Origin: Macrostomum lignano
Taxonomy: Eukaryota
NCBI GenBank assembly: GCA_002269645.1
Contig: NIVC01001452.1
Coordinates: forward strand, 1 to 32,262
Direction: 5' to 3'
DNA length: 32,262 nucleotides
The notes beneath the pieces were generated by a model. It ran no database searches. It saw nothing but the letters and a program-made list of their open reading frames with translations, and was not told where the DNA came from. A program made the position numbers and the translations under genes. The first letter of the stretch is position 1. Each line of letters begins with the position of its first letter. Shown here one piece after another: positions 21,987 through 23,067 of this stretch.

Positions 21987-22667
21987 ATGGATACCGTTCA
22001 AGACTACAATAGTGTTAGGATCGACCTATTCTCTCTCAAGTCGAGAGGTCCAAGCTACAACGGAACCGAGACGTACGACATTGAGTACGACGAACAGGGC
22101 CCTCTCTATCTTGCCAATGCGACGCCCGTACTGATTGTCAAGGGTGTGAGAACCGACAATGAAGGCCGCGAATTCATCATTCTTTCCCAAAAGCACTTGG
22201 AGAGCTGCATACCAGAAGCGTTCAATTCCGTGTGTCACCAGCTCTCTATCCAAGGAATGGCGCTATTGGGGTACAACCCCACTTTTGGCTGCGACAGCGC
22301 TGCATTCGGATTGGCTCACGACTTTAAAATGTACGACAAGAGCGGCAAGTTGTGCACCGACTACAAGAACAAGACGGGCTACTATAGAGTACTGTTCGCC
22401 CTAGACACGGCGGTGATTCACGACTCGGTTCTAACCGCGGTGCCGAAAATTCAACAACTGCAATTCATAGAAGCTCCCAAGCAGGCGTTTGACCGCTGCT
22501 ACTGGATTCCACCGTTAAAAATCAAGGTAGGACGCAAGCGCGGAGCTGGTGGAGCTGAGCGGAAACAAAAGCAACCGAAAAAACCGCTTGCAGAACGTCG
22601 TGTGCGTAAACAGGGTGTTTTGCGCAAGGTGGAACCACCTACCGAACTTGGACTGGGCGCGCGCTAG
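21987..22667 (+). CDS. Putative ssDNA-binding protein (T7 gp2.5/DUF2738-like OB fold) with basic tail
   Basis: TATATAAG at 21936, then aacATGG at 21987. The segment KMYDKSGKLCTD...GYYRVLFALDTAVIHDSVLTAVPKIQQLQFIE resembles the C-terminal strands of gp2.5-type SSBs. AATAAA at 22719. Confidence 0.55.
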   Translation: MDTVQDYNSVRIDLFSLKSRGPSYNGTETYDIEYDEQGPLYLANATPVLIVKGVRTDNEGREFIILSQKHLESCIPEAFNSVCHQLSIQGMALLGYNPTFGCDSAAFGLAHDFKMYDKSGKLCTDYKNKTGYYRVLFALDTAVIHDSVLTAVPKIQQLQFIEAPKQAFDRCYWIPPLKIKVGRKRGAGGAERKQKQPKKPLAERRVRKQGVLRKVEPPTELGLGAR

Positions 22668-23067
22668 AACGTTTCATAGACCCCGGGCATTGTACAACCT
22701 GAGGATCGGAAAGTGTACAATAAACTTTTTCAAACGTTCATTATCTGCCATTGTTTTTGGTTGCCAATCAACCAACGATGTGCTGCGTCTTTTTGCTCAA
22801 TGTAAACCAAACTCTGTTGTTATCACTACCGGTACTTATCGTGCAGAAGTTAATGTTAAGCCAAACTTTTTCCGCCTTGCCAACTCGAGCTCGCGCTGGG
22901 TTGAGTGGGAGAGTGAGGTATTCAATGGGCTTGTAATAAAGTCCCCATTCCGCAAGGCCAAGTGCCTGCTGTGCGGAAAGAATGGTCGGTTAGTGTTCCT
23001 AGGAATACGAAACTATGACGAACTGTGTAAAATGTACGACCACGTGACTGCTATTCTGCAACTCTAA
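22549..23067 (+). CDS. Divergent TATA-binding-protein (TBP)-like protein; start unresolved
   Basis: Two TBP-like half repeats: LQNVVCV...RALYNLRIGKCTINFF...AIVFGCQS and WESEVFNGLVIK...KCLLCGKNGRLVFLGIRNYDELCKMYDHVTAIL (compare TBP YEPELFPGLIYR...LLIFVSGKVVLTGAK...EIYEAFENIYPIL). No in-frame ATG precedes the domain. Confidence 0.7.
   Translation: MELSGNKSNRKNRLQNVVCVNRVFCARWNHLPNLDWARARTFHRPRALYNLRIGKCTINFFKRSLSAIVFGCQSTNDVLRLFAQCKPNSVVITTGTYRAEVNVKPNFFRLANSSSRWVEWESEVFNGLVIKSPFRKAKCLLCGKNGRLVFLGIRNYDELCKMYDHVTAILQL

Follow-up and report, generated by a model that had tools for sequence, protein, structure and literature searches.

A TATA-binding protein homologue in a Maverick element of Macrostomum lignano, most likely encoded as the second exon of a fusion gene

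The locus and its element

The window analysed here is the whole of a 32,262-nucleotide stretch from Macrostomum lignano (assembly GCA_002269645.1, contig NIVC01001452.1, positions 1 to 32,262, forward strand), and it carries a Maverick element of 10,516 bp (19497-30012) that encodes a divergent TATA-binding protein (TBP) homologue. The element has inverted ends of ~656 bp and a 6-bp target-site duplication (TSD), is inserted in a 45-bp tandem array, and has every gene on the + strand. Genes for a packaging ATPase, a protease and the major and minor capsid proteins are present, as judged by homology to open reading frames (ORFs) of Mavericks that bear the polymerase gene pPolB. The TBP-like sequence lies in a stop-to-stop frame (22531-23067, +) containing the peptides from which a first-pass annotation had proposed an element-encoded TBP. 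This frame gave 91 genome matches in two subfamilies (~98-100% and 74-77% identity), which overstate the number of insertions because host single-copy genes appear on three contigs. The window element belongs to what is called family A below; TSDs differ in five of the six family-A elements read end to end.

TBP homology, fold and selection

Repeat 2 of the frame matched Pfam PF00352 at E=9.5e-5 and 22.6 bits, 0.3 bits below the cut-off of 22.9. TBPs made up 18 of the 19 PDB sequence matches at E<=10 (best E=0.0034), and a profile of four close relatives returned six matches from 1.84 billion proteins; three of these are clear TBPs, two are relatives of reduced form, and the sixth had been part of the input. 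Two unnamed JGI/IMG proteins (P0013 and P0015) have the same reduced repeat-1 layout as the window TBP. Repeat 1 was not detected by Pfam. Its best structural match among 48,161 chains was repeat 1 of yeast TBP (Z 7.1, root-mean-square deviation (rmsd) 2.6, 71 residues), obtained with a low-confidence model (repeat-1 pLDDT 50-73) and followed by rows at Z 5.8 and 5.7; a Z below 8 may reflect a common arrangement. When we aligned the frame by hhalign to host TBP, TRF and family B, the probability was 42% (E=2.6e-4, 119 columns). Models of the whole domain reached mean pLDDT values of 39.6 and 43.5, and the top 44 Foldseek ranks were TBP-containing, none of them at E<=0.001 and with rmsd of 13-22. 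In ESM Atlas, TBP clusters were found at 0.94, but the recognition score of 1919 is under the tool's 2300, and the top row in BFVD was a Heterosigma akashiwo virus TBP (E=9.3e-4). Scans of viral and metagenome contigs gave no relatives, which leaves the homologues P0001-P0007 without DNA sequence. Based on these results, we regard the TBP homology of the frame as virtually certain. The two half repeats described in the first-pass annotation, the second aligning with TBP, were recovered by Pfam for repeat 2 and by structure and hhalign for repeat 1, and the profile search that it had suggested returned TBPs from the 1.84 billion proteins.

As judged from its residues, the protein is a TBP homologue and not a canonical TBP, failing the criterion of four intercalating Phe residues. 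As the first-pass annotation had read, two are kept (INFF and EVF); the other two are replaced (R/P and C/G), and the pattern is the same in all four family-A members. These positions were taken from hhalign and a wider alignment in place of MAFFT, which misaligned repeat 1. Identity to host TBP is ~21%. Glu108 and Glu110 of the C-terminal stirrup, which we take to contact TFIIB, are invariant in all 13 aligned TBP-like sequences, and the domain is basic (K+R 24, D+E 9). Between the two subfamilies, the TBP exon has a dN/dS of 0.088, exon 1 one of 0.077 and the capsid gene one of 0.039, all from a single subfamily pair whose silent sites are near saturation. The two TBP repeats, at 0.07 and 0.10, are equally constrained. 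Where the TBP frame overlaps the upstream ORF, its dN/dS is 0.155 versus 0.63 for the upstream frame, which indicates that the TBP frame is the constrained one. These values support an element-encoded TBP homologue held under purifying selection.

In an unrooted tree of 16 rows, family B groups with host TBP and TRF (support 100), and families A and C/D stand apart; since the tree has neither a root nor a clade test, we claim no donor for the element TBP. The host TBP and TRF-like core domains each form one uninterrupted frame, each on three contigs.

A missing start codon and a predicted splice junction

The TBP frame has no ATG before residue ~168, so it is not a free-standing gene of ~160 amino acids (aa), and the TBP-homologous part begins at 22594 instead of the 22549 first given, at an acceptor-like site (22593/22594). 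An in-frame donor-like site (22526/22527) lies in the upstream ORF, and both junctions fall at codon boundaries. Between the subfamilies, identity holds over 15 nt at AAG/GTAGG, collapses, and resumes at CTTGCAG/AAC; 19 of 51 four-fold sites are identical in the same comparison, versus all 15 nt at the donor. The spacer is 67 nt in the window (66-67-nt class) and 196-206 nt in subfamily 2, with all length classes modulo 3, and the tail of the unspliced ORF is between 11 and 71 aa long. All 47 loci that contain the two ends have both the donor and the acceptor; most of these loci are near-identical copies, some counted twice, and one of them, C4486, is fused in frame and was treated as a one-off. 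In 9.2 kb the donor-like word is found once. In four outside homologues (51-55% identity), conservation stops at the same codon, with 68 of the first 180 columns invariant and none of the next 24, and conservation of the upstream ORF ends at codon 181 in six homologues. In these six, the codon after K-V always has G at position 2 (donor +5), compared with 14 of 108 codons in the tails.

Based on these observations, we suggest that a fusion gene most likely begins with the upstream domain, which we call SSB-like (single-stranded-DNA-binding-like), and has the TBP frame as its second exon, and that cis-splicing very probably joins 22526 to 22594. An assembly error as the source of the two frames was ruled out, as contigs of five of eight RNA runs cross the junction without an indel. 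Contigs of the eight runs showed neither a joint at the predicted intron nor a leader-like loose end; since contigs lose rare forms, they are evidence neither way on splicing. A start-less exon of this kind would explain why ORF callers miss such genes.

The strongest evidence for splicing comes from the predicted junctions of families C/D, other Mavericks in this genome, whose TBP-like ORFs have 72 genome matches. The C/D TBP aligned with the window TBP at an hhalign probability of 64% (E=6.5e-5; reversed control 0.1%) and with TBP at 97.7%. A phase-0 GTRAG donor was found in all ten C/D loci, which are perhaps five or six lineages, 259-619 nt upstream and after a P-x-x-K-x-L motif that resembles the P-L-K-I-K ending window exon 1; in the background, 0 of 666 donor-like sites followed such a motif. 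A T-rich acceptor stands at the homologous codon in seven of the ten loci, the three misses having local frame breaks. In one C/D family (C297:261436-262845), the TBP-like part is followed within its ORF by a deoxynucleoside kinase domain (Pfam dNK E=6e-24), and on C2285 the kinase has an ORF to itself.

Exon 1 gave no sequence match in Pfam, ESM Atlas or PDB. Its best fold match, with a low-confidence model, was CP312R of African swine fever virus (ASFV) (Z 5.8, rmsd 5.0, 136 residues, 9% identity), described in the accessible part of its report as a single-stranded-DNA-binding OB-fold protein (PMC9963768). We treat the assignment of exon 1 as a single-stranded-DNA-binding-like domain as a weak lead.

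Family B looks like a separate case. It has pPolB, AGTAGT ends, a PC4 gene and a TBP that starts at an ATG and is aromatic at each of the four positions, and this TBP matches Macrostomum lignano proteins at 88-89%. On C114:460183-476982, C393, C529, C878, C84 and C100, the separate family-B TBP overlaps an upstream ORF. Virion genes of family B are 2-3 nt apart, without a TATA word.

Gene map of the window element

The features of the element are collected in Table 1. The capsid and core-protein labels are assumed, and Pfam gave no capsid assignment.

Table 1. Features of the family-A element in the window (window coordinates; a slash in a motif marks a predicted junction).
Feature	Position	Strand	Basis or remark
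Left 6-bp TSD, CACAAG	19491..19496	.	Inside 45-bp tandem array; sequence
Left terminal inverted repeat (TIR), ~656 bp, starts ACTACT	19497..20152	.	97.9% to right arm
Fic-domain ORF, 259 aa	20219..20998	+	Pfam Fic E=6.8e-14
TATAAATA box, 39 nt ahead of 117-aa ORF	20994..21001	+	Sequence count
117-aa ORF, possibly PC4-like (weak)	21033..21386	+	No Pfam match; BLASTP E=0.015 to family-B PC4 ORF
171-aa ORF, kept in subfamily 2	21383..21898	+	ORF list
TATATAAG box ahead of SSB-like/TBP gene; predicted early, host-type promoter	21936..21943	+	Sequence
Predicted exon 1, 180 codons, SSB-like domain	21987..22526	+	dN/dS, conservation end, weak fold match
Unspliced ORF, 226 aa: SSB-like domain and Lys/Arg-rich tail; final 24 codons overlap TBP frame	21987..22667	+
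Predicted 67-nt phase-0 intron, donor AAG/GTAGG, acceptor CTTGCAG/AAC	22527..22593	+	Homologous junction in other families
Predicted exon 2: TBP-like domain of 157 codons with two repeats, the helix of the first shortened	22594..23067	+
TATAAATA box ahead of 129-aa ORF	23080..23087	+
129-aa ORF, common to other Mavericks of the genome; contains TATAAATA box at 23369	23106..23495	+
208-aa ORF, common to family B; TATAAATA at 24116	23498..24124	+
rve integrase with chromodomain-like C-terminus	24258..25336	+	Pfam rve E=8.7e-10, Chromo E=0.08
Probable minor capsid protein (labelled by its position); TATAAATA at 25306	25349..26479	+	No Pfam match; weak match to other Mavericks' ORFs
Basic ORF of 114 aa (core-protein-like by assumption); TATAAATA at 26475	26523..26867	+
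Major capsid protein (assumed label); TATAAATA at 26840	26897..28180	+	No Pfam match; 28-33% identity to matching ORF of pPolB-bearing Mavericks
Cysteine protease-like ORF	28177..28614	+	Pfam Peptidase_C48 E=0.06; matches in other Mavericks
Packaging ATPase-like ORF	28649..29278	+	Weak AAA matches; 32-39% to other Mavericks' ATPases
Right TIR, ends AGTAGT	29360..30012	.
Right 6-bp TSD, CACAAG	30013..30018	.

The integrase extends over two frames in the window copy; in two copies of subfamily 2 it is a single ORF. None of the three listed elements of subfamily 2 showed the Fic and 117-aa ORFs (20219-21386), and one of the three has a tandem duplication of the 171-aa gene. The last ~35 aa of the 129-aa ORF (23388-23495) resemble an amphipathic helix, have a TATAAATA box just upstream and are kept in subfamily 2; this segment may be a separate small product. 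Elsewhere in the window, the 45-bp array spans 16200-19496 and 30013-30500, other tandem arrays have units of 8, 19, 21, 22, 23 and 42 bp, and a short inverted-repeat element lies near 11991-12807.

TATA words of the Maverick families

The repeated TATAAATA boxes noted in the first pass were confirmed: the window has seven copies, versus 1.46 expected, and every copy is a + strand one within the element. For the coding strand of the element's core, the expected number is 0.16 and the observed one seven. They stand 39-57 nt ahead of five ORF starts and are kept in subfamily 2, and the SSB-like/TBP gene is preceded by the different box TATATAAG. A 36-nt look-alike of this early promoter lies ahead of the PC4-like gene in a pPolB-only element (see below).

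When we counted words in the virion blocks of the families, the two blocks of family A had six TATAAATA each and no TATAAGY, and the three blocks of C/D had four, five and seven TATAAGY and no coding-strand TATAAATA. Family B had neither word, though this family has its own TBP. A general co-occurrence of TBP with TATAAATA, as first envisaged, therefore does not hold, C/D having a TBP together with TATAAGY. These counts suggest that family-specific TATA words mark cognate late-promoter factors, and that two related TBP clades, A and C/D, should have two words is more suggestive than a general co-occurrence would be. The element-specific promoter factor of the first-pass annotation is favoured by the reciprocal words of the families, but TATAAATA also fits what we take to be the ordinary TATA consensus.

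An element without a polymerase and a possible partner

When the six full family-A elements were searched by tblastn with the family-B pPolB, no pPolB was found (0/6), and their ORF lists leave no room for one. The reading of the locus as a ~10-kb integrating Maverick is borne out by the TIRs, TSD, integrase and virion-type genes, with the correction that the element is without a DNA polymerase. A capsid search (98 of 451 candidates scored) listed this family alone and then relatives at 30-33% identity, which are the nearest capsids in pPolB-bearing elements.

Other elements have pPolB and little else. Among 14 ACTAC-ended elements examined, eight carry pPolB, all with their own 6-bp duplications. 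These pPolB-only elements are 8.8-9.8 kb long, with ACTAC ends, an intron-split (GT-AG) pPolB and mostly a PC4-like ORF. They were selected for overlap with genome pPolB matches, and at E<=1e-4 no integrase, capsid, ATPase, protease, SSB or TBP was found in the eight; their 6-bp duplications imply that an integrase is needed from elsewhere. Candidate partner segments include C24:795199-803954 and C566:83278-92763. The terminal bases are common to the window element and C211 at 27 of 32 positions, and to subfamily 2 and C566 over the first 18. In the TIRs, the outermost ~30 nt (ACTAC, ~22 variable nt, TTTT; 19497-19528 in the window) differ block by block, and these blocks are shuffled between copies and between types of element. 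The inner TIR does not vary, and the left and right ends of one ACTAC-ended element can differ.

The other six ACTAC-ended elements (7.6-9.4 kb) were considered as a third coding segment and dropped, as they matched none of the queries. The four with ORFs listed look non-coding. Five of the six are multicopy, have 6-bp TSDs and form a palindrome over nearly their whole length, and these six are likely non-coding passengers.

Based on the gene contents and ends, we consider it quite likely that family-A and pPolB-only elements are complementary segments of a two-part Maverick; the competing explanation is that an unseen full-length helper element supplies the polymerase.

Proposed role of the fusion and alternative explanations

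We suggest, with a probability of roughly 0.6, that the SSB-like::TBP fusion would be the element's own late transcription factor, acting at the TATAAATA boxes. In this model, an early host-type TATATAAG promoter would give an unspliced mRNA for the SSB-like protein with its basic tail and a spliced mRNA for the fusion. The fusion, which keeps the two TFIIB-side glutamates and has an altered DNA-binding face, would bind the TATA word of its family and recruit host TFIIB and Pol II to the integrase and virion genes. Its SSB-like part would tie it to replicating genomes, producing an early/late switch. The pPolB-only segment would supply the polymerase in trans, and the other segment the integrase, capsid and late factor. 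The combination as a whole, in which a segmented integrating Maverick, a spliced SSB::TBP late factor and family TBPs co-evolved with their own TATA words (TATAAATA versus TATAAGY) form a minimal replication-coupled late switch on host Pol II, is more tentative and less likely than not.

Several points weigh against this interpretation. The family-A intron is rich in A and lacks a pyrimidine tract, and the L-Q that precedes the acceptor agrees with canonical TBP as though it were translated. The frame offset is +1 in five of six family-A lineages, as a frameshift model would also expect. The SSB label is based on a low-confidence model, and comparison of exon 1 with the upstream ORFs of C/D did not show homology (hhalign 2.7%; no HMM match). 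Only six family-A elements were read end to end, and a full-length ACTAC-ended element with both modules is possible. For the TATA words, TATAAGY had been noticed in C297 and C1390 before counting, which leaves C2285 as the sole independent test. Four of the seven C2285 sites lie in a short duplication, its second, 1.7-kb block has none, and the C297 count is the same as the maximum of its shuffles. Neither word is present in family B, which does have a TBP. As an ordinary TATA box, TATAAATA could be read by host TBP. The donor GTAGG departs from the host GT[G/A]AG consensus given in the accessible text of PMC8629364, and the herpesvirus TBP mimic ORF24 needs all four Phe according to the part of PMC12529657 available, two of which the window protein has lost.

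Four other explanations were weighed against the late-factor model. The protein may be a TBP decoy that binds host TFIIB, NC2 or Mot1 and not DNA, damping host transcription or relieving repression, with host TBP reading TATAAATA. The replacement of two of four Phe, the retained TFIIB-side glutamates and the presumed canonical form of TATAAATA would fit such a role. We find it unlikely, as the family- and strand-specific TATA words differ between TBP clades, both repeats are equally constrained (dN/dS 0.07 and 0.10) and the protein is still basic (K+R 24, D+E 9).

Slightly more doubtful is a stand-alone TBP made by spliced-leader trans-splicing at 22594, with the terminal AUG of the leader as in-frame start, which can coexist with cis-splicing. 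In the accessible text of PMC8629364, the Macrostomum lignano leader ends in ATG and the top trans-acceptor motif is [T/C]TNCAG, fitted here by TTGCAG; start codons can come from flatworm leaders (PMC9851317), phase 0 is compatible, and family-B TBP is 88-89% identical to M. lignano proteins. Against it, an in-frame donor upstream is conserved in all families, and trans-splicing predominates where an upstream donor is absent, as stated in the same part of PMC8629364.

It is improbable that the fusion serves replication or packaging instead of transcription, its TBP fold anchoring the SSB-like domain on AT-rich DNA. The fusion with an SSB-like domain and the early-type promoter common to the pPolB-only element agree with such a role; however, the TATA words stand 33-60 nt ahead of most virion ORFs and not at the ends, and the TFIIB-side residues are kept. 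Least probable of all is expression without splicing, either from a UUG start codon at 22588 or by ribosomes that shift +1 out of the upstream ORF. TTG is kept in both subfamilies and, by back-reading, in homologues P0003-P0005, the offset is +1 in five of six lineages and copy C4486 is fused in frame. Against this, homologue P0006, judged from its protein only, leaves no place for an NTG codon at this point, subfamily 2 has differing offsets, in the 196-nt variants the upstream ORF ends ahead of the TBP start, and the C/D ORFs are 259-619 nt apart at a junction with textbook splice sites.

Comparison with known systems

Our literature search covered mostly papers outside subscription journals. 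For animal Mavericks it gave nothing on segmentation, on spliced or splicing-dependent TBP fusions or on family-specific TATA words, no explanation of how Mavericks, without an RNA polymerase, time their capsid genes, and no TBP apart from a figure legend of Starrett et al. This legend (Fig. 5, PMC8502044) names a TBP-like gene in a MELD element with an adintovirus-like PolB; the accessible part of that paper mentions no splicing, SSB fusion or promoter word, and the one supplement seen has no TBP, TATA or Macrostomum.

Like Mavericks/Polintons (adintoviruses), the window element has TIRs, a 6-bp TSD, an rve integrase, ATPase, protease and capsid-like ORFs, and its family is multicopy and recently active. 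It differs in having no pPolB, a length of 10.5 kb, ACTAC and not AGTAG ends, and complementary pPolB-only elements. Bidnaviruses have a Polinton-derived pPolB and a segmented genome whose segments share terminal sequences. They are single-stranded-DNA viruses that do not integrate, with parvovirus-type capsids, whereas both parts here are integrated with TSDs. If the polymerase-only and capsid-only elements are interdependent, genome segmentation would have arisen within Mavericks that integrate, and elements of other genomes described as "non-autonomous" or "truncated" Mavericks would deserve re-examination.

The window protein shares with cellular TBP/TRF (PF00352) the two repeats, the E-x-E-x-F motif, the G-x-x-V-x-x-G strand-helix motif and the repeat-1 fold, and departs from them in its shortened first-repeat helix, in having other residues at two of the four Phe positions, in lacking its own start codon and in its predicted SSB-like fusion. 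For exon 1, ASFV CP312R is the top structural row, yet without sequence support. Viral TBPs are already known, and a TBP alone is not unique. Giant viruses and mirusviruses likewise encode divergent TBP-like proteins. Giant viruses bring their own RNA polymerase, and the window element has none.

The closest working model is given by the TBP mimics of beta- and gammaherpesviruses. ORF24 of Kaposi's sarcoma-associated herpesvirus has a viral TBP fold within a larger protein and reads a variant TATT late promoter for host Pol II, as described in the accessible part of PMC12529657. According to the same text, it differs in its 752 aa, its direct Pol II binding and its need for five other viral activators and all four Phe. 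The window protein is not a member of this family, the ORF24 architecture being absent, and the likeness is one of fold and of proposed mode of action; herpesvirus UL87 appeared in BFVD only as a weak row at rank 50. If a single protein of TBP fold serves as late factor and each family has its own TATA word, the herpesvirus late-transcription system would have a much smaller counterpart here, and the TBPs of the Maverick families, with different Phe sets and different words in one host, would form a natural experiment in TBP specificity.

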